From: Anaeromyxobacteraceae bacterium
Lineage (GTDB): Bacteria; Myxococcota; Myxococcia; Myxococcales; Anaeromyxobacteraceae
NCBI GenBank assembly: GCA_047602405.1
Contig: JASGHJ010000001.1
Location: 1,632,001 to 1,696,000 of the forward strand
Direction: 5' to 3'
DNA: 64,000 bases
In this document: positions 48,641 through 60,223 of the stretch, in pieces
Numbering within the stretch: the stretch's first letter is position 1
Layout: each line of letters opens with the position of its first letter
The notes under the pieces: model-generated
What the model saw: only the letters and a program-made list of their open reading frames with translations
Database searches by the model: none
Told to the model about the DNA's origin: nothing
Program-made: the position numbers and the translations under genes

Positions 48641-51160
48641 TCACCTCGCCACGAAGGTGCGCAGGGCGACGCTGCCCCCGTGGCCCGCCGTCGAGGACAG
48701 GCCCACCCAGGGTGTGAAGAGGAGATCGGCGGTCCAGGTGTACTTCGCGTCGGCGAAGTAGGTGGCCCGCCAGCCGTACGTGCCGCCGGAGGGCAGCCCG
48801 ATCCCGAGGGCGGTGAGGTCGGGGACCGTCACCGTGTCCGCGCTGGCGAACACGGTGAGGAACGGGCCCGTGGTGGGGTACCTCGGGGACAGCGTGAAGT
48901 AGCGGTAGCCGTCGCCGCCCGTCACCGTCAACGCGTCACCTGGGCCGATCCCGGTCGCGCCCGCCGCCGGGGACACGGCGGTGGGCGCGGGGCGGAGCTC
49001 GAGGGCGACGCCCGCCTCGCCGGGTACGACGATGACGCTCGCGTTCGTCGTGTCGTTCGACGCATCCGAGGCGGTGGCGCGCGCCGTGAACCGCACCCCG
49101 GGGATCACCGGGGCGGGGTAGCTCCAGGCGCCGGCCGCGGCAGGCGCGAACGGGAGCCCCATGCCGAAGCCCGGCAGGCGCAGCGTCGGGGAGAGCCGGA
49201 CGTTCACGTGGCCGGCGGGGACGAGGAGCGTTCCGGACACCGCCGCCGAGGCGAGGGCGGGGCCGTCGAGGGCCAGCTCGACGCTGGCGTCGATCGCGTC
49301 CGTGACCGGCGGGCTCGCCTTCAGGAACCGGCCCCACGCCGCGGGGGCGCCGCCGGCCCCGGGCTGCCACTCCAGCGCGTAGACGTCGAACGGCTGGGTG
49401 GGCGGCCCGACCCAGCTCGCGAAGAGCGAGCCGGCGGCGGTGTCGCCTGCGCCGTGGTCGAACGCGCCCGCGGCCGCGGCCGAGACGCGCACCGAGAGGC
49501 CCGGGGTCCGCCCGGTCACGGTGTAGGAGAGCGTGGTGTCGCGGGACGCGGCGAAGCCCCAGGCGATCCGGTCGGCGGTGAGCCCCTGGCCGATGGTCGC
49601 GCCCCCTTCGAACGGGAACACCACGTCGTAGGGCGGATGGACGCCGTGGAAGGTCAGGCGTCCCGACGCGGGCGCGCGCTGCACCTCGCCGCCGAGCATG
49701 ATCTTTCCGGAAGGGCTCGCCCAGCCGTCGCCCGGGTCGAACACCTCGACGTCCATGCCCTCGGGACCGACCACGAGGACCGGAACCTCCACCCTCGCCT
49801 CGCCGGCCTGGATGCCGATCGTCGCGGTCGACGTGCCGACCTGGGCGGGCGGCGTGTACACGACGGCGTCGCCGTCCTGGGCCAGCGTCCCGGGGCCACG
49901 CGAGAGCGTGAACGTGCGGGAGAGCCCGGCGGGCGTGGTGGCGGTCTCGAGCCTCACCGGCTTCCCGCCGGCCAGGGCCACCGCGCGGGGCGGATGGACC
50001 TCGAGCGCGTCGACGAGCGGCGCGGGGTGGAGCACCACGGAGGCGGTCGCGGTCAGGCACCCCGCGATGGCGTAGAGGGTCGTGCCGGACGCCGAGGTGA
50101 GGCCGCTCGCCGGCGGCGGGGCGTACGAGGTTGCGGTGCCCTCCTCCGCGACGAGCGCTCCCCGGTTCGTCGGGTAGAGCGCCCAGCGCACCGGCCCGTG
50201 GGCCCCGCCGGCGAGGAGGGCGGTGACGGCGGTGGGGGGATCGCCCGCCGCGAGCTCCAGCGTGGCGGGCTCGATGGCGAGCGTGCCGACCTGCTTCACG
50301 GCGATCGCGGTGGTGGCGCTCGCGGAGAGGCCCCCGTACCCCGCGACGGTCGAGGTGACCGTGGCGGACTCACCCTCCGTGTACACGCACTCCGCCGGGG
50401 GCAGGTAGCTTCCGGTGTCGCCCGTGGCGCTCACGCTGCCGCGGCCGGCGGTGACCGCGAAGGCGACCGGGGCGCTGGCGTTCGCGGCGGCCGCCGCGAG
50501 CGCGACCGGGGCGCCCCCGAAGGTCGCCTCGGCCGCCGCGGGGACGGCGAGCGTCGGGGCGAGGTGCACGGTGACCGTGGCGTGCGCGACGAGGTCGCCG
50601 AGCGTCGCGGTGAGCTCGACCGGGGTCCCCGCGCCGAGCGCAGGCGGCGGCGTGAAGGTGGCCAGGTTGCCGGCCGAGGCGAGCGTGCCCGCCGCCGGCG
50701 TCGACCAGACGACGGTGCCGGCCGCGCCGCCGGACGGGACGGCCTCGAGGTGCACCACCGCGCCGCCCACCGCCGTGTCGGCCGACGAGGCGGTCAGGGT
50801 GAGCGCGGGCACCGGGGCGGGCTTCACGGTGAGGGTGGCCTTCGCGGAGCGCCCGGCCGCCGAGGCGGTCACCGTCACCTCGGTGGCCACGCCCACGGCC
50901 GCGGGCGGGAGGTAGCGCGTCGAAGGCCCCGACGCGCTCGAGAGGGCCCCGACCGCCGGGGCGAGGCTCCACGCGATGGTGGCGCTCGAGTGGGTGAGCG
51001 TGGCGGTGAGCTCCACAGGGCCCGTGCCGGCCACGAGCGTGGCGGCCGCGGGCGTGACCTCGAGCGCAGGCGGAGCGGGGTCGCCGGGGCCTCCGGTGAC
51101 TCCCTCACCGGTGCAGGCGGCGAACGCGGACGCCAAGCAGACGACGAACCAGGACCTCAT
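48641..51160 (-). CDS. Large surface lipoprotein with repeated Ig-like domains
   Basis: Lipobox FAAC; about five repeats ending G.L........Y/F.PP. Confidence 0.75.
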
Positions 51161-51286
51161 GGTCGACCCCCCAGCGCCCCACGGCGTCTCCGGGCTGGAT
51201 GCCGCGGAGGCGGACGGGGCGTGAAGGATGGACAGCGGGCCGGGGAGGATTCGACTCCGGGCGGCGACGCCCTGGGCAGCGGCGGC

Positions 51287-52078
51287 TCAGAGCGCCTTGC
51301 GGAGCGAGCGCACGAACCGCCGTGCCCGCTCCGCGCGGGCCGCGCGGGTGCCGGGCGCGGCCACCTTCTTCACGATGGCGCTCCCCACGACGACGCCGTC
51401 GGCGAGCTTCCCGAGCTGCCGCGCCTGCTCCGGGGTCGAGACGCCGAAGCCGATCACCACCGGCACGCTCGCCTTCGCGCGGACGGCGGCCACGAGCGCG
51501 CCGATCTCGCCGGCCACCGCGCTGCGGGCGCCGGTCACGCCGGTGACCGAGACGAAGTAGACGAACCCGGTCGCGGCGCGCGCCGCGGCCTCGACGCGAG
51601 CGGGGCCGGAGGTGGGCGCCACCAGGAACACCGAACGGACGCCGCTCCTCGCGAGCGCGGGGGCGAGCTCGCCCGACTCCTCCGGGAGGAGGTCGGGGAT
51701 GATGAGCGCGTCCACGCCGGCCTTGCCGCAGTCGGCCGCGAAGCGATCGAGGCCGTGGGCGAGCATGGGGTTGAGATAGCCCATGAGCGCGATGGGGACG
51801 TCGCACCGGGCGCGGACGTGCGCCGCGACCTCGAGCACCTGCTTCGTGGTGGTCCCGTGCGCGAGCGCGCGCTCGGCCGCGGCCTGGATGGTCGGGCCGT
51901 CGGCGATGGGATCCGAGAAGGGCACGCCCAGCTCGAGCAGGTCGGCCCCGCCCTCGACGCAGGCCATCGCGACGGTCTTCGAGGTCGCGAGGTCGGGGTC
52001 GCCGGCCATGACGTAGGTGACGAGCGTCGGCCGGCCCTCGGCCCTCGCCCGGTCGAACGCGGCCTGGATGCGGTTCAC
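51287..52078 (-). CDS. trpA: Tryptophan synthase alpha
   Basis: [29 protein letters not shown]. Confidence 0.97.
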
Positions 52079-53346
52079 CGATGCCCCCTCTTCTTCGTCT
52101 TCTTCCCCGTCCGCCCCGAGCGTAGGCCCGCGGAGCGGGCCGGAGACGAGGGGCGCGCCGCGAGCGCCCTGCGCACGTGATCCACGTCCTTGTCGCCGCG
52201 GCCGGAGACGTTGACGACGACGAGGCCGTCCGGCCCGAGCGCCTTCGCGACCTTGCGCGCCGCGGAGACCGCGTGGGCGGTCTCGAGCGCCGGGATGATG
52301 CCCTCGGTGCGCGCGAGGTACGTGAGCGCCTCGAGCGCCTCCTGGTCGGTCGCCTGCATCAGCGTGAGCCGGCCCGAGTCCTTGAGGTACGAGAGCTCCG
52401 GCCCGACGCCCGGGTAGTCGAGCCCGGCGCTGATCGAGTGGGCCTCGGCGATCTGGCCGTGCGTGTCCTGGAGCACGTAGCTCCTGGAGCCGTGCAGCAC
52501 GCCCGGCGTGCCCTTCGCGAGCGCCGCGCCGTGCTTGCCCGTCGAGAGCCCGAGCCCGGCCGCCTCGACGCCCACCAGCTTCACGGTGGCGTCGTCCAGG
52601 AAGCCGGAGAAGATCCCCATCGCGTTCGACCCGCCGCCGACGCACGCGACCACCGCGTCGGGCAGCCGGCCCGCGACCTCGAGGCACTGCCGCCGCGCCT
52701 CGCGCCCGATGACCGACTGGAAGTCGCGCACGAGCGCGGGGTAGGGGTGCGGCCCGGCCACCGAGCCGATGATGTAGTGCGTGTCGCGGACGTTCGTGAC
52801 CCAGTCCCGCAGGGCCTCGTTCATCGCGTCCTTGAGCGTGCGCGAGCCGGCCTGGACCGGGATCACCCGCGCCCCCATCAGCTCCATCCGGAAGACGTTG
52901 AGCGCCTGCCGCTCGACGTCGAGCGCGCCCATGTAGACGTCGCACGGCAGCCCGAACAGCGCCGCGGCCGTCGCGGTCGCCACCCCGTGCTGCCCCGCCC
53001 CCGTCTCCGCGATGATGCGCGTCTTGCCCATCCGCCGGGCGAGGAGCACCTGCCCGAGGGTGTTGTTCACCTTGTGCGCCCCGGTGTGGCACAGGTCCTC
53101 GCGCTTCAGCAGCACGCGGCACCCGCCCGCGTCCGCGGACATGCGTCGCGCCTCCCCGAGCGGCGTCTCCCGCCCCGCGAACCGCACGAGGAGCTCCTCG
53201 AGCTCCGCCTGGAACGCCGGCTCCGCGCGCGCCGCCTTCCACGCCGCCTCGAGCTCGTCGAGCGCCGGCACGAGCGTCTCCGGCACGTACCTTCCTCCGT
53301 ACGTCCCGTACCGTCCAAGCGCGTCCGGCAACGTCCCCGTGCTCAT
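52075..53346 (-). CDS. trpB: Tryptophan synthase beta
   Basis: [49 protein letters not shown]. Confidence 0.97.
52107..52152 (-). repeat. REP-like repeat, copy 9, inside the trpB 3' end
   Basis: Reverse complement CCCTCGTCTCCG-hairpin-CTACGCTCGGGGCGGACGG, translated as [15 protein letters not shown]. Confidence 0.85.
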
Positions 53347-54038
53347 ACGTCCCTCTCCCGATGCAGAGGCGGATGCGCCGCCCCCCGCGCCCCCGCCACG
53401 AACGCCCTCATCTTCCCCTCGTCCTTCACCCCTGGCGCGCTCTCCACCCCGCTCGCCACGTCCACCGCCCAGGGGCGAACCACCCGCACCGCCTCCCCCA
53501 CGTTCTCCTCCCGCAACCCACCCGCGAGCACGATCTTCATCCCCTTCGCGACCGCCCTCCGGGCAAGGTCCCAGTCGAACACGACCCCCGCCCCCCCGAA
53601 CCCCGCCGACGGCGCATCGAGCAGCACCGCCACCGCCCCCGCCGCGAGCCACGCCGCCCCCGCCTCCACGTCGCCCTCCGACGAGACCCGCAGCGCCTTC
53701 ACGACCGGCACCCCGAGCCCGCGCGCGAGCTCGAGCGGCTCGTCCCCGTGCAGCTGCACCGCCTGCACTCCCGACACACGCACCGCCTCCACGAGCTCCG
53801 CCCGCGAGAACCCGACGGTCACCGCGACGGCCGCGACGCGCGAGGGCAAGAGCTTCACCAGCCCCGCCACCTCCGCCGCCGCGACGTACCGCTTCGACCC
53901 CGGCCACAGGTTGAACCCGATCGCGTCCGCGCCCGCCTCGACCGCCGCCCGCACGTCCTCCGGCCGGCGCACGCCGCAGATCTTCACGAGCGGCCGCGCG
54001 GCCGGAGGCGCGCCCGGGTCGAGGAACCGCGGGATCAC
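53343..54038 (-). CDS. trpF: Phosphoribosylanthranilate isomerase
   Basis: [28 protein letters not shown]. Confidence 0.95.
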
Positions 54039-54814
54039 GCCGTCATCTCCCGGATCATCGCCCCGGGATCCGCCGCGCGCACGAGCGCCTCGCCCACGAG
54101 CAGGTTCGCCGCCCCCGCCCGCCGGAGCCGCCGCGCGTCCTCCGCGGTCCGCACCCCGCTCTCCGCGACGCCTCGCACCGAGGCCGGCAGCCCGGGCAGG
54201 ATCCGCTCGGACGCCGCGAGGTCCACCTGGAACGTGCGCAGGTCGCGGTTGTTCACGCCCACGATCCGCGCCCCCGCCGCGAGCGCGACCTCGACCTCGG
54301 CGGCGTCGTGCACCTCGACCAGCGCGGCGAGGCCGAGGGCCTCGCAGTCGTCGTGGAGCCGCCGGAGCACGTCCGGCGCGAGCGCCGCCACGATGAGGAG
54401 CGCGGCGTCCGCGCCGTGCGCGCGGGCCTCGAGGAGCTGGTAGCGGTCGACCGTGAAGTCCTTGCGGAGCAGCGGCACGCCCACCGCCGCGCGCACCGCG
54501 GCGAGGTCGGCGAGCGAGCCGCCGAAGCCCGGGCCGTCGGTGAGGACCGAGACGCAGGCCGCGCCCGCCGCGGCGTAGCGCCGGGCCTGGTCCACCGCGT
54601 CGAGCCCGCTCGCGATGGCGCCGGCCGACGGGCTCGCGCGCTTCACCTCGGCGATCACCCGCACCGGGCCGCCGGGCAGGGACAGCGCCGCCTCGAACGG
54701 CCGGGGCGGGGCGGCGTCGCGGGCGCGCGCCTCGAGCTCGCGGTCGGGCTCGGTGGCGCGGCGCGCGGCGACCTCGTCGCGCTTGCGGGCCAGGATGTCG
54801 GCGAGGAACTTCAT
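54035..54814 (-). CDS. trpC: Indole-3-glycerol phosphate synthase
   Basis: [31 protein letters not shown]. Confidence 0.96.
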
Positions 54815-55821
54815 GGCGCCCGCGTGGCGGCGACGAGCCGGGCGAGCTTGTCGGCCGCGTGGCCGCGGTCGATCGCCTCGGCGCCGACCCGGACGCCCTC
54901 CGGGAGGTCCTTCGCGGCGCCGGCGCAGACGAGCGCCGCGGCCGCGTTCGCGAGGGCGGCGTCGCGGCAGGCGCCCTTCTGGCCGCCGAGCACCTCGCGC
55001 AGGATGGTCGCGTTCCGCTCGGCGTCGCCGCCCAGGATCTCGCGCTCCTCGTGGCGGCCGAGGCCGAGGTCCTCGGGCTGCACGGTGAAGCGCTCGACGC
55101 CCGCGCCCTTCACCTCGCAGACGTGAGTCATGCCGGTGACCGCGATCTCGTCGAGCCCCGCGCCGTGCACCACGAAGGCGTGCGCCGCGCCGAGGGCCGA
55201 CAGCACGCCGCCGATGATGGGGACCCACCGCGGCTCGTACACGCCCATGACCTGGTGGCGCGCGCCGGCCGGGTTCGCGAGCGGCCCGAGCAGGTTGAAG
55301 ACGGTGCGCACGCCGAGCTCGCGCCGGATGCCGGCGACCGCCTTGAAGGCGGGGTGCAGGCGCGGCGCGAAGAGGAAGCCGATGCCGACGACGTCGATGG
55401 CGCGCTCGACCGCCTCCTTCGGCGCGTCGACGTTGACGCCCAGCGCGGCGAGCACGTCCGCCGACCCCGAGCGCGAGGAGACCGCGCGGTTGCCGTGCTT
55501 CGCGACGGTCACGCCCGCGCCCGCCACGATGAACGCGGCGGTCGTCGAGATGTTGAAGGTGTGCCGCCCGTCGCCGCCGGTGCCGCAGGTGTCCACGAAG
55601 ACCGGCTTCGCGACGTGGACGCGATCGACGCGGGCGCGCATGACCTCCGCCGCGCCCGCGATCTCGTCCACCGACTCGCCCTTGAGCCGGAGCGCCGCGA
55701 GGTACGCGCCGACCTGCGCGGGCGTCGCGCCGCCGTCGGCGATCTCGGTCATGACCTCGGCCGACTGGGCGCGGGTGAGGGACTTCCCGTCGAGGAGCGC
55801 GGCCACCGCCTGCTGGATCAT
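54811..55821 (-). CDS. trpD: Anthranilate phosphoribosyltransferase
   Basis: DTCGTGGDG, NIST, KHGNRAVSS, GPLANP. Confidence 0.96.
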   Translation of the reverse strand: MIQQAVAALLDGKSLTRAQSAEVMTEIADGGATPAQVGAYLAALRLKGESVDEIAGAAEVMRARVDRVHVAKPVFVDTCGTGGDGRHTFNISTTAAFIVAGAGVTVAKHGNRAVSSRSGSADVLAALGVNVDAPKEAVERAIDVVGIGFLFAPRLHPAFKAVAGIRRELGVRTVFNLLGPLANPAGARHQVMGVYEPRWVPIIGGVLSALGAAHAFVVHGAGLDEIAVTGMTHVCEVKGAGVERFTVQPEDLGLGRHEEREILGGDAERNATILREVLGGQKGACRDAALANAAAALVCAGAAKDLPEGVRVGAEAIDRGHAADKLARLVAATRAP

Positions 55822-56411
55822 GGCGCCTCCACGGGCGCGAGCCGCGCGAGCCAGTTGCCGAGGAGCCGCTTGCCCTCGACGGTGAGGATGGACTCGGGGT
55901 GGAACTGCACGCCCTCGACCTCGAGGCCCGCGTGGCGGAGCCCCATGATCTCGCCCTCGTCGGTCCAGCTCGTGACCTTCAGGGCGGCGGGGAGCGTCTC
56001 GCGCTCGACCACGAGCGAGTGGTACCGGCCCGCCTCGAACGGCCGCGAGAGCCCGGCGTAGAGGCCGGTGCCGTCGTGGAGCACCGGGCTCGCCTTGCCG
56101 TGCACGATGCGGTGGTTGCGGACCACCTTCCCGCCGAAGGCCTGGCCGATGGCCTGGTGGCCGAGGCACACGCCGAGGATCGGGAGCACGCCCGAGAGCT
56201 CCCGGATCGCCGCGAGCGTGACGCCCGCCTCGTCCGGGGTGCACGGGCCCGGCGAGAGCACGAGCCCGTCGGGCCTCCGCGCCCGGATCCCCGCGACGTC
56301 AATCTGGTCGTTGCGGTGGACCTCGACGTCCGCGCCGAGCTCGCCCAGGTACTGGACGAGGTTGAAGGTGAACGAGTCGTAGTTGTCGACGAGCAGGAGG
56401 CGCGGGCTCAT
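55818..56411 (-). CDS. trpG: Anthranilate synthase component II
   Basis: DNYDSFT, SPGP, GVCLGHQ, RYHSL, QFHPES. Confidence 0.95.
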   Translation of the reverse strand: MSPRLLLVDNYDSFTFNLVQYLGELGADVEVHRNDQIDVAGIRARRPDGLVLSPGPCTPDEAGVTLAAIRELSGVLPILGVCLGHQAIGQAFGGKVVRNHRIVHGKASPVLHDGTGLYAGLSRPFEAGRYHSLVVERETLPAALKVTSWTDEGEIMGLRHAGLEVEGVQFHPESILTVEGKRLLGNWLARLAPVEAP

Positions 56412-57932
56412 GACCGGCTCCTCTTCTTCTTCGCGGCCGGCCGCTTCATCACCCGCGCCCCGGCCGTGAGCCGCTGCTCCGCCTGCGCCACCGCCGTGAA
56501 CACCGCGCGGGCCTTGTTCATCGTCTCCTGGTACTCCGCCGCGGGCACCGAGTCGTAGACGACGCCGGCCCCGGACTGGGCCGAGACGCGGCCCTTCGAC
56601 GCCATCAGGGTGCGGATGGCGATGCACATCTCCATGTCGCCGCCGCGGTCGAAGTAGCCGACCGCCCCCGCGTACGGGCCGCGGCGGGCGGGCTCGAGCT
56701 CGTCGATGATCTCCATCGCCCGCACCTTGGGCGAGCCGCTGACGGTGCCGGCGGGGAAGCTCGCCCGCAGCACGTCGACCGCGTTCTGCCCCTCGGCGAG
56801 CCGGCCGCGCACCTCCGAGACGAGGTGCATCACGTGCGAGTACCGCTCGACCACCTTGAGCTGGGCCACCTTCACGGTGCCGGTCGCCGCGACGCGGCCC
56901 ACGTCGTTGCGGCCGAGGTCGACGAGCATGACGTGCTCGGCGTTCTCCTTCGGGTCGGCGCGCAGCTCCGCCTCGTAGCGGCCGTCCTCCTCGGGGTCCT
57001 TGCCGCGCGGGCGGGTCCCGGCGATCGGGCGCAGGGTCACCTCGCCGGCCTCGAGCTTCACGAGCGTCTCGGGCGAGGAGCCCACGAGCGCGCGGTCCCC
57101 GTCCTTCACGAAGAAGAGGTACGGCGACGGGTTCACCCGCCGGAGCGCGCGGTAGATCTCGAACGGCGCGAGGTCGGTCTCGGCGTCGAAGCGCTGCGAG
57201 AGCACGATCTGCTGGCAGTCACCGGCGGTGATGTAGGCGCGGGCGCGGGCGACCGCGGCCTCGAACACCTCGCGCGGCACCCGGGGGCGGAGCTCGGCGT
57301 GCCGCCTCGGCACCGGGCGGCGGTCGCGCAGCGGCCGGGCGAGCACCGCGAGGCGCCGGCGGAGCTTCCCGAGCGCGGCCCGGTAGAGCCGCCGCGGGTC
57401 GTCGTCCGCGCCGACCCGGACCTCGCAGATCACGTGGATGGAGTGGCGGAGGGCGTCGAACGCCACGACCTCGTCGAAGTCCATGAGGAGGACGTCGTCG
57501 AAGCCGGACTCGTCGGCCTTCGCGATGGGCACCCGCGGCTCGAACTCCTTCACCGCGTCGTACGAGACGTGGCCCACCAGGCCGCCCGAGAAGCGCGGCG
57601 TGCCCGGGACGCGGACCGCGCGGTGCGAGGCGAGCGCGGCGCGCACCACGCCGAACGGGTCGCCCGGCTGCCCGAGCCTCCAGCGCAGCACGCTGCGCGG
57701 CCCGGCGCCGAGGAAGGAGAACCGCGCGCTGCGCTCCCCGCCCTCCACCGACTCGAGCAGGAACGCGTGCTTCTCGCCGCGCGAGAGCTTGAGGAAGGCC
57801 GACACCGGGGTCTCGGTGTCGGCGTCGACCTCGACCCGCACCGGGACCGCGCGGCCGGGCCGCGCGAGCTCCAGGAACGTCTCGAGGTCGGGGACCGCCT
57901 TCAGATCAGCCGCGCCAAAGAAACACCGTCAT
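56408..57932 (-). CDS. trpE: Anthranilate synthase component I; the start ATG at 57932 needs a +1 shift near 57917
   Basis: [45 protein letters not shown]. The frame is open to 57928 but has no ATG/GTG/TTG upstream of 57841. Confidence 0.93.
57906..57932 (-). other. 8-codon zero-frame [11 protein letters not shown] with a CTT-TGG-C putative +1 frameshift site
   Basis: ATG ACG GTG TTT CTT TGG CGC GGC TGA; the ATG overlaps the panD stop (ATGA); GGAG lies upstream. Confidence 0.55.
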
Positions 57933-58340
57933 GACGTGAGGCTCCGTTCCCGCGATGCACGCTGGGGGCCGGCGACCTCGACGGCGTTCCCGTTCGCGAT
58001 GTGGTTGTGCGCGTCGACGAGCACGACCGTGGGCTTCCACTCCCGCGCCTCGGACTCTTCCATGTCCGCGAAGGTGGCGAGGATGACGAGGTCGCCCGGC
58101 TGGTTGAGGTGGGCGGCCGCGCCGTTGATGCAGATGACGCCGCTGCCCCGCTCGCCCTTGAGGGCGTACGTCTGGAGCCGGGTGCCGCGGGTGACGTTCC
58201 AGACGTGGACCGCCTCGTGCTCCCAGAATCCCTGCCGCGTCCATGAGCGCCTCGTCGATCGTCACGGAGCCCTCGTAGTCGAGGTCCGCGTGGGTCACGG
58301 TCGCGCGGTGGATCTTGGACTTGAAGAGTGTGCGCCGCAT
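57929..58340 (-). CDS. panD: Aspartate 1-decarboxylase (frameshift near 58223)
   Basis: [10 protein letters not shown]...YEG-SVTID, then [20 protein letters not shown]. Confidence 0.93.
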
Positions 58341-58392
58341 CGGGAAGATTTCGATCTGTACAACCCAATCCGACCCTGCGCAAGGCTTCCCC

Positions 58393-60223
58393 ATGACGAA
58401 GACCCTCGCCGCCGTCGCCGCGCTGGTACTCGCGGGCTGCGCCCATCCTCGCGCCGCCGCACCGGCGTCGCCCGCGCCGGCGGAGCCGGCGATCGACGCC
58501 GCCCGCGCCCGCGCCGAGGTGACCTGGCTCGCCGACCCCGCCCGCACGGGCCGGGGGACCGGCACCCCGGGCAACCCCGCCGCCGCGGCCTGGATCGAGG
58601 AGCGCCTCCGGGAGGCCGGCCTCGCGCCCGCCTTCCCGGGCGGCTACACGCAGCCGCTCGAGGCCCCGTACCAGGCCTCGCTCCGGCCCGGCAACGCGCT
58701 CTCGGTCGGCGCGCGGGCGCTCGCGCTCGGCGAGGGGTTCGTGCCCTTCGGCTTCTCCGACGACGGCACGGTGCGCGGCGAGCTCGTCTGGGCGGGCTAC
58801 GGCATCACCGCGCCGGAGCTCGCCTACGACGACTACGCCGGCCTCGACGTGAAGGGGAAGATCGTGCTCGTCGCGCAGGACTTCCCGCGCGAGGAGGACG
58901 CCGCCTCGCCCTTCCGCGACCCGCGCAACTACCGCTACGGCGAGTGGCGCCACAAGGCCGCGAACGCGCGCGACCACGGCGCGGCGGGCGTCGTGATGGT
59001 GCGCGACGGCTGGAACCACGCGGGCGCCGACACGCTGCCGCCGTGGAAGGGGCAGGTCGCCTCCCGCGCCGGCATCGTCGCGGCGCGCGCGACGGCGCAG
59101 GCGCTCGCCGCCGCCGACGTCAACGTGGCCGCGCTCGCCGCGCCCGGGCAGGTGGACGGGAAGCCCCACTCGCGGGCGCTCGGGGTCCCCGCCTCGATCA
59201 GCGCGGCCATCGAGCACGAGCACGCGACCACCGCGAACGTCGCGGCGCTCCTCCCGGGCGCCGACCCCGCCGTCGCGGGCGAGTGCGTGGTCGTGGGCGC
59301 GCACTACGATCACCTCGGCCTCGGGGGCGAGACGTCGCTCGCCCCCGATCGGCTCGGCCAGGTCCACCCCGGCGCCGACGACAACGCGTCGGGCGTGGCC
59401 GCGATGCTCGCGGTCGCCCGGGCGCTCTTCGCCGGGCCCGCGCCGCGCCGCACCGTCCTCTTCGTCGCGTTCGCCGCCGAGGAGATCGGCCTCCTCGGCT
59501 CCGCCGAGCTCGTGCGCGCCCCGCCGCCCGCGTGCCCGGTCGAGCGGATGTCGCTCATGGTGAACCTCGACATGGTCGGGCGCCTGCGCGCGCGGCGGCT
59601 CTACGTCGACGGCGCCGACACCGGCAAGGGACTCCGCGACGTCGTGAAGGCGGCCGCGGCGGGCCCCTCCGCGCTGCCGCTCGACCTCGCCTTCGGCGGC
59701 GACGGGAACGGCCCCTCCGACCACACGAGCTTCCACGCGCGGCGGGTCCCGGTGCTCTACCTCTTCACCGGCGCGCACGGCGACTACCACCGCCCGGGCG
59801 ACACCGCCGACAAGGTCGACGAGGGCGGGATCGCCACCATCGCCCGGCTCACCGCCCGCACGGTGGCGGCGGTGGCGGCGCTGCCCGCCCGGCTCGAGGT
59901 GGTGATGAGCGCGGGCGGGCCACCCTCGCAGGCCCGCGGCGGCGAGCGTGGGTACGGCGCCTACCTCGGCACCATCCCGGACTTCGGCGAGCGGAAGGCG
60001 CCCGGCGTGCTCGTGAGCGGCGTGAAGCCGGGCAGCCCCGCCGAGAAGGCGGGGATCGCGGGCGGCGACGTCCTCCTGCGCATCGGCGCGAGGAAGATGG
60101 CGAGCCTGCACGACCTCGTGGACGCGCTGCGGGCCGGTCGCCCGGGCGACGTCGTCGAGGTCGAGCTCCAGCGCGCCGGCGAGACGAAGGTCGTGAAGGT
60201 GACGCTGGAAGAAGCGGAGGTAG
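58393..60223 (+). CDS. M28 peptidase lipoprotein with PA and PDZ domains (frameshift near 60210)
   Basis: Lipobox [43 protein letters not shown] motif YLGTIPD...GSPAEKAG. Confidence 0.9.

Follow-up and report, generated by a model that had tools for sequence, protein, structure and literature searches.

The closest described relative of the locus reported here is the +1 autoregulation of prfB, whose traits we compared from the available parts of PMC5009743 and bioRxiv 10.1101/2024.09.24.614795. In prfB, a short frame-0 ORF carries an internal Shine-Dalgarno (SD)-like element 3-4 nt upstream of a CUU-U slip, functional protein is made in the +1 frame only and the slip serves a negative-feedback logic; the trpE locus described below appears to share each of these traits. 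Hungry-codon frameshifting, studied by Gallant and co-workers, resembles the predicted trpE event in that the slip occurs where an aminoacyl-tRNA is limiting, and tRNA supply and starvation alter frameshifting at the cognate codon (available parts of PMC5009743 and PMC2941156 for the former, PMC2941156 for the latter). In the available sections of a 2016 review (PMC5009743), it is said of useful starvation-specific trans-frame products that 'no examples are known', frameshifting at pheL is described as incidental and the Ty1 slip site is given as CUU-AGG-C. Two further groups are related by their logic. In trpL/pheL attenuation and in the Chlamydia YtgR system, as far as the accessible accounts go, a ribosome at cognate codons upstream senses the amino acid, as is predicted for trpE, and antizyme, Ty1 and ABP140 all slip by +1 where the codon in the A site is slow, antizyme being a sensor circuit.

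Here we analyze trpE in a window of 64,000 nucleotides from an Anaeromyxobacteraceae bacterium (contig JASGHJ010000001.1), where a first-pass annotation had proposed a tryptophan-sensing +1 frameshift and knew of no description of one for this gene. We likewise found no description of frameshifting at trpE, or of an amino-acid-sensing frameshift, in the open-access literature (subscription journals lay mostly outside this scope). Neither trpE nor Anaeromyxobacter is mentioned in the text and two of the three supplements of the GeneTack survey (PMC3711429), and a review of archaeal recoding (PMC8211752) gave no match for a trpE frameshift.

The trpE frame break and its operon

The features of the locus, with codon -28 numbered from the D of the DTETP motif, are as follows.

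57929..58340, minus strand: panD, first gene of the operon (TIGR00223 match); its TGA overlaps the leader ATG
57942..57945, minus strand: candidate SD GGAG 5' of the leader ATG (-5.8 kcal/mol)
57906..57932, minus strand: out-of-frame leader, with an equivalent in 57/57 loci of the host family
57924..57927, minus strand: internal SD-like GGTG, 3 nt 5' of the slip codon, predicted frameshift stimulator
57921..57923, minus strand: E-site codon TTT, variable among relatives with a bias to weak codons
57917..57920, minus strand: slippery CTT-T, with a P-site Leu codon, predicted re-pairing on TTT and base 57917 skipped
57915..57917, minus strand: A-site Trp codon TGG, predicted sensor, invariant in the compared loci
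57906..57908, minus strand: frame-0 stop TGA, end of the unshifted product
57902..57904, minus strand: CTG at codon -28, possible weak restart, at the start-codon position of slip-less orthologues
56408..57916, minus strand: body of trpE, read in the +1 frame (507 aa including five leader residues)
51287..56411, minus strand: trpG, trpD, trpC, trpF, trpB and trpA, joined by 4-nt stop/start overlaps

On the minus strand the leader ATG (57932-57930) overlaps the panD TGA (57931-57929), and the leader reads ATG ACG GTG TTT CTT TGG CGC GGC TGA, or MTVFLWRG*, in a frame different from that of trpE, just as the first-pass annotation had it. When CTTT is read as one step, an uninterrupted TrpE of 507 aa results, which ends at 56408 and whose alignment to a solved anthranilate synthase (5cwa) begins at residue 8. 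This protein matched the TrpE family TIGR00564 with an E value of 5e-151 and 503.8 bits, slightly below the cut-off of 517.7, and its gene is followed by trpGDCFBA; judged by family match and trp operon context, the product is anthranilate synthase component I. The earlier statements on the surrounding frame and junctions also held: the first ATG, GTG or TTG in the trpE frame is the GTG at 57841, which lies within conserved sequence, and all seven junctions from panD through trpE-G-D-C-F-B-A are ATGA or GTGA.

The break at 57917 is genuine and not an assembly indel, a conclusion that we regard as virtually certain. The first-pass annotation had pointed to an apparent indel in panD about 300 bp away and cautioned that one spurious T could mimic the break. 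The extra panD base, 58227, about 310 bp from the break, is indeed an assembly error, since it was absent from all six runs that cover it (X1, X2, X3, X4, X8 and X9), and it shows that errors of this kind do occur in this long-read assembly. However, short-read contigs of X1, X3, X4 and X9, which come from four studies of near relatives, span the trpE break without a gap and retain three Ts rather than CTTGGC (X8 leaves the site uncovered). As the panD indel vanishes in the relatives' contigs and the trpE break stays, the former is an error and the latter is not. The same break was present in the single-contig genomes G007, G015, G021, G023 and G057, and the slip site in 24 of 24 loci of the genus that include the 5' end of trpE, counting the locus in the window (four of the 24 come from single-contig genomes). 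Orthologues thus keep the ATG out of frame together with CTT-TGG, and a spurious T at this site has a negligible chance of being the explanation.

Neither is the layout a chance occurrence. GGTG-NNN-CTTTGGC occurs once in 6.16 Mb, compared to 123 occurrences of CTTTGG. Furthermore, a genome-wide scan for long coding frames that lack a start and are overlapped by a short ATG-started ORF gave a single match at strict settings, the trpE locus, and eight rows at loose settings, two of which were the trpE locus. The GGTG-CTT-TGG arrangement at trpE is therefore not due to chance. The genome's own prfB site reads CGG GGG GCG CTT TGA C (C2 near 969377, plus strand). Two 38-nt prfB-like copies ending TTGGGGGTTTCTTTGACA were also seen in this genome, at C1 near 90427 (plus strand) and at 0-based position 2323359 on the reverse strand; they probably mark a mobile-element terminus.

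Conservation of the leader and predicted slip site

A class-wide search of 368 genomes for the pattern CTTTGG...D-T-x-T-P-V found it in the host genome (G000) and in 87 of the 91 other genomes of its family, f1, which the database names of the closest homologues place with Anaeromyxobacter. It was also found in 5 of 208 genomes of family f6, one of them the unpublished G268, which is flagged in this tally and left out of all other counts, and the reversed control gave 0 throughout. The lengths of all 93 matches (114, 117, 120 or 126, from the listed coordinates) each set the CTT off the TrpE frame by one base. In the four f1 genomes without a match, which are 70-87% complete, the 5' end of trpE was not assembled.

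We compared 57 f1 loci, one per genome, from related genomes that are not independent samples. GGTG at -7 to -4 and CTT TGG C were invariant in these loci, and CTT-TGG was present in all 81 usable loci compared and in 10 of 10 further loci. The f1 leader has 3-9 codons before the CTT, and a frame-0 stop follows 3-10 codons past it in 57/57 loci, compared to a chance rate of 0.13% per codon. In 46/57 loci the T of this stop is drawn from GCT, a codon that makes up only 0.4% of Ala codons before GAN. Thus, the frame-0 stop appears to be under selection, as in prfB. The E-site codon varied across loci (TTT 36, TTG 8, CGT 3, CTT 3, CTA 3, TTC 3, TGT 1), whereas CTT-TGG was constant. UUU and UUG, which belong to a fast-release class of E-site codons at the RF2 site according to the available part of PMC2377451, together occupied the E site in 44/57 loci; in G000, TTT accounts for 0.7% of Phe codons and CTT for 0.9% of Leu codons. 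A -2 slip at trpE and a tRNA-Phe slip at TTT-CTT were both rejected because the codon before CTT varies.

The SD-like element about 3 nt 5' of the CUU was GGTG in 57/57 f1 loci, CGGAG in 22/22 loci of a second family (f8, below) and CGGGGG in genome G294, where GGTG is substituted by a sequence identical to that of the G000 prfB site. This swap argues that what is conserved is pairing with 16S rRNA and not a required valine. The internal element is weaker than that of prfB (-5.7 versus -9.4 kcal/mol), and the anti-SD pairing register of the f1 GGUG is 2 nt off that of prfB. SD strength 5' of the leader start averaged -7.9 kcal/mol in f1, and an in-frame ATG, GTG or TTG 5' of the slip was found in one f1 locus. 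L086, L153 and L154, all of genus g20, no longer have panD upstream but retain the leader and slip site, which here follow a sequence resembling a promoter. At L032 (G126), L082 (G114), L148 (G007) and L149 (G003), a second trpE-like copy has an ordinary in-frame start, and each of these genomes also carries the trpE with leader and slip site.

Family f8 belongs to the same order, has a long-branch TrpE and had no panD in the fetched loci. We fetched 23 f8 5' regions, one of which was too short. The 22 readable regions all consist of an ATG, 8-10 frame-0 codons and CGG AGY NGK CTT TGG (CGGAG-N4-CTT-TGG), and in all 22 frame 0 runs for a further 8-13 codons to a TGA stop that coincides with the conserved D-L-L-T-P anchor or lies near it. 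Furthermore, TAnnnT is found 6-9 nt 5' of the leader ATG in 22/22, with a TTG 16-18 nt further upstream in 21/22, compared to 3 of 624 control positions. As this promoter-like site abuts the leader, the f8 trpE mRNA likely begins at or just before the out-of-frame ATG and would then be leaderless, with no room for an attenuator and with most upstream in-frame starts outside the transcript. Such in-frame ATG, GTG or TTG codons 5' of the slip occurred in 8/22 regions, at variable positions and several of them in or before the predicted promoter; between the slip and anchor-12 they were absent in 21/22. In L278, L279 and L301 of this family, trpE is divergent from an apparent rsmB/sun-type gene, as judged by eye from its translation. 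G049, also of f8, contains a GGAGCGGGCTTT-like motif 91 times (10 times in the reversed control), on many contigs and often in close pairs, which suggests a dispersed repeat or REP-like element.

Four f6 genera carry the slip site (G269, G275, G377 and G414), and in G275 and G377 the E-site codon is a Trp codon as well. A single clade of slip-bearing TrpEs was rejected (AU test, p 0.00045, on 29 of 31 intended rows), and at least four changes are needed on the tree. G269 is sister to the slip-less G279 (100/100), each the only genome found for its genus, and the slip-less G173 is sister to f1 (97/96). Gain and loss are indistinguishable, since the tree is unrooted and the f8 branch is long. 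In close orthologues lacking the slip, the start lies at codon -28 or -30, suggesting that the leader was put in front of an older start.

Beyond these families, 49 loci of other families in the phylum comprised 8 with no anchor, 9 weakly anchored, 7 with the slip and 25 with an ordinary in-frame start, the last group without a usable CTT-TGG by eye. Two large sequence collections were searched with patterns that each allowed a single SD type and a single distance window, and a blank result therefore does not imply absence. The pattern GGAG-N3-4-CTTTGG-N70-100-anchor in genome contigs gave 120 loci from 45 of 64 parts, with one trpE (L272) that was identical in sequence to G268 and was dropped from the counts, and GGTG-N3-4-CTTTGG-N60-90-anchor in metagenome contigs gave trpE in 0 of 120 loci from 25 of 64 parts. 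We saw no codon-swapped cassette at any other amino-acid gene in G000, where non-trpE candidates were judged by eye, and the 30 of 133 pattern matches that were read in five f8 genomes had the leader layout at four trpE sites only.

Routes to full-length TrpE and the nature of the input

Full-length TrpE is very likely reached by a +1 ribosomal frameshift at CUU-UGG, and the pattern of conservation leads us to propose, with a probability of about 0.78, that this frameshift is gated by Trp-tRNA. Ribosomes would initiate at the leader AUG. Once UGG enters the A site while peptidyl-tRNA-Leu sits on CUU, the tRNA would be encouraged to re-pair on UUU by base-pairing between GGUG and the 16S tail and by a weak codon in the E site. 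When Trp-tRNA is ample, UGG would be decoded fast and the ribosome would terminate two codons on; when it is scarce, the slip would yield anthranilate synthase, the enzyme of the committed step, and so close a feedback loop. Genes for tRNA-Leu(GAG), tRNA-Leu(UAG) and a single tRNA-Trp were found in G000.

The first-pass annotation's reading, a slip at CTT-TGG-C during Trp scarcity with GGTG 3 nt upstream, is supported by these data, the dependence on Trp being drawn from comparison. The slip would work with any codon that starts with U. That TGG is nevertheless fixed, and fixed at two different protein positions, in separate lineages and in the committed step of Trp synthesis, points to Trp as the input. 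So does the search for other Trp sensors. TrpR (PF01371) was found in 0 of 31 genomes searched, with a positive E. coli control, and we detected no Rfam trp leader in 50000-60000 and no minus-strand terminator in 56000-58600. Alignment of 29 of the 57 f1 loci revealed no conserved RNA structure (the consensus fold had 4 pairs without a compensatory change, at -1.98 kcal/mol), in line with the earlier remark that no attenuator hairpin was seen. The interval 50000-60000 gave no T-box match.

It had also been proposed that the slip drives the translationally coupled genes along with TrpE. The TrpE part of this claim fits our data, but control of the whole operon through coupling alone looks doubtful, as an SD of their own (-7.6 to -10.4 kcal/mol) precedes five of the six trp genes further down, all but trpC (-2.6), and such control would need Rho polarity. 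Untranslated trpE may bring Rho polarity onto the downstream genes, and rho is present in G000 at C1:2160685. A second rho-like gene lies at C2:2991797-2992873 (plus strand; E 2.5e-143, below the cut-off).

A genuine slip might instead act as a constant throttle, or respond to Leu-tRNA, tRNA modification or growth rate rather than to tryptophan. This reading would draw on the facts that CUU-U with an upstream SD slips unaided, that CTT is rare in G000 and that, in a source available in part, such slips may be inhibited by uncharged tRNA. We consider it unlikely, because TGG is invariant at two protein positions in two TrpE lineages whose monophyly was rejected, two genera have the additional E-site Trp codon and trpE encodes the first step of Trp synthesis. 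Alternatively, TrpE could arise mainly by re-initiation at an NTG behind the leader stop, with the leader tuning the coupling and the slip playing a minor part. This alternative, a leader-driven form of which has been proposed before (PMC4833913, available in part), is improbable, even though codon -28 is an NTG in 48/57 f1 loci (CTG 31, GTG 13, TTG 4), more than the roughly 30-60% expected from context, the slip-less orthologues L103, L107 and L090 start at the same position and 81 of the best 120 database homologues are annotated from it (26 begin at -7 or -9, inside conserved sequence, and none includes the leader). In 9/57 f1 loci there is no ATG, GTG, TTG, CTG or ATH within 8 codons past the slip, codon -28 is CAC, AGC, GAG, CTC or TCC in five of ten further loci, and the SD before it averages only -2.1 kcal/mol in f1. 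In f8 the leader stop lies so close to the D-L-L-T-P anchor that a restart behind it would cost TrpE its conserved N-terminal first strand. Moreover, stalling at UGG at low Trp would lower restart, the wrong direction, and CUU-U with its internal SD would be left unexplained. Initiation at the CTG at 57904, which the first-pass annotation had named as an alternative, is thus backed by the frequency of NTG at this position and contradicted by the nine loci that lack a near-cognate start. Basal restart at codon -28 may nevertheless run beside the slip in f1, and this weak restart may supply a basal level of TrpE in part of the family.

Two further routes bypass a ribosomal slip altogether. RNA polymerase might drop one base at the T run and so produce some in-frame transcripts, and TTTCTTT is indeed found in 36/57 f1 loci. 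Only three Ts are invariant, however, with CGG, CGT, AGG, AGT, GGT or TGG as the upstream codon in f8 and f6, and the SD-like element and frame logic point to the ribosome; one contig from an RNA run is gap-free at the site, which weighs little with just 13 nt on one side. This makes polymerase slippage very improbable. Readthrough of the panD TGA, which lies in the trpE frame, for example as selenocysteine, would give a PanD-TrpE fusion. Here, panD and trpE share a frame, a tRNA-SeC gene is present in G000 (C2 1906940) and a fusion of this kind exists in the databases (P0019); set against this, the slip site is kept where panD is missing (3/57 f1 loci, with none within 700 nt upstream, and f8, where none was found), the residues after the TGA vary freely (RCFFG, RCCFG, RCYFG, RCSFG, RCVFG, WCFFG) and a conserved hairpin was not found in the aligned loci. 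The likelihood of readthrough is minimal. P0019 is a single such entry, in which the two proteins are joined in frame and Cys takes the place of the panD stop; it reflects either an error in the sequence or a natural mutation by which the gate is bypassed.

Relation to known regulatory systems

If Trp-gated slippage at trpE is borne out, it would add a mode of trp regulation beside repression, attenuation, the T-box and TRAP, and a cassette of 15-30 nt with a swappable codon would constitute a minimal amino-acid biosensor. In f8 the complete regulator would fit into the first 30 or so nt of a leaderless mRNA. The locus makes the use of starvation-induced frameshifting testable in cultured Anaeromyxobacter species and in E. 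coli, and it exposes a blind spot of annotation, as public TrpE entries omit the leader.

The trpE gate appears to be a variant of the prfB kind and not a member of it: the predicted slip machinery is the same, and the input and use appear new. In contrast to prfB, where RF2 reads a stop codon (UGA/UAA), the A-site codon at trpE is sense UGG in every locus, the predicted competitor is Trp-tRNA instead of RF2 and the product is anthranilate synthase instead of RF2. In the trpE leader, 2-12 more codons would be read before termination, the SD-like element (GGTG/GGAG) is weaker and 3-10 codons precede the slip, compared to about 25 in prfB. RF2 sites with sense codons, UGG included, were reportedly described by Sipley and Goldman in 1993 and Gao in 1995. 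While hungry-codon frameshifting has been studied as a starvation error, the trpE site is conserved and the product probably depends on it. Unlike trpL/pheL attenuation, the trpE locus has no terminator or antiterminator that we could find and a single Trp codon (two in G275 and G377), and its predicted output, unlike that of attenuation and of YtgR in the accounts accessible in part, is a change of frame. Antizyme, Ty1 and ABP140 differ in being eukaryotic, in lacking an SD and in responding to polyamines or a rare tRNA and not to the pathway's own amino acid. Altogether, the trpE leader is probably a naturally selected hungry-codon frameshift that serves as an amino-acid sensor, a protein-free and hairpin-free form of biosynthetic control that is one base from the prfB cassette, is fixed family-wide and, within the Myxococcales, either arose two or more times or was transferred between distant trpE lineages. 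It would then represent a third kind of sensor frameshift, beside those of RF2 and antizyme.
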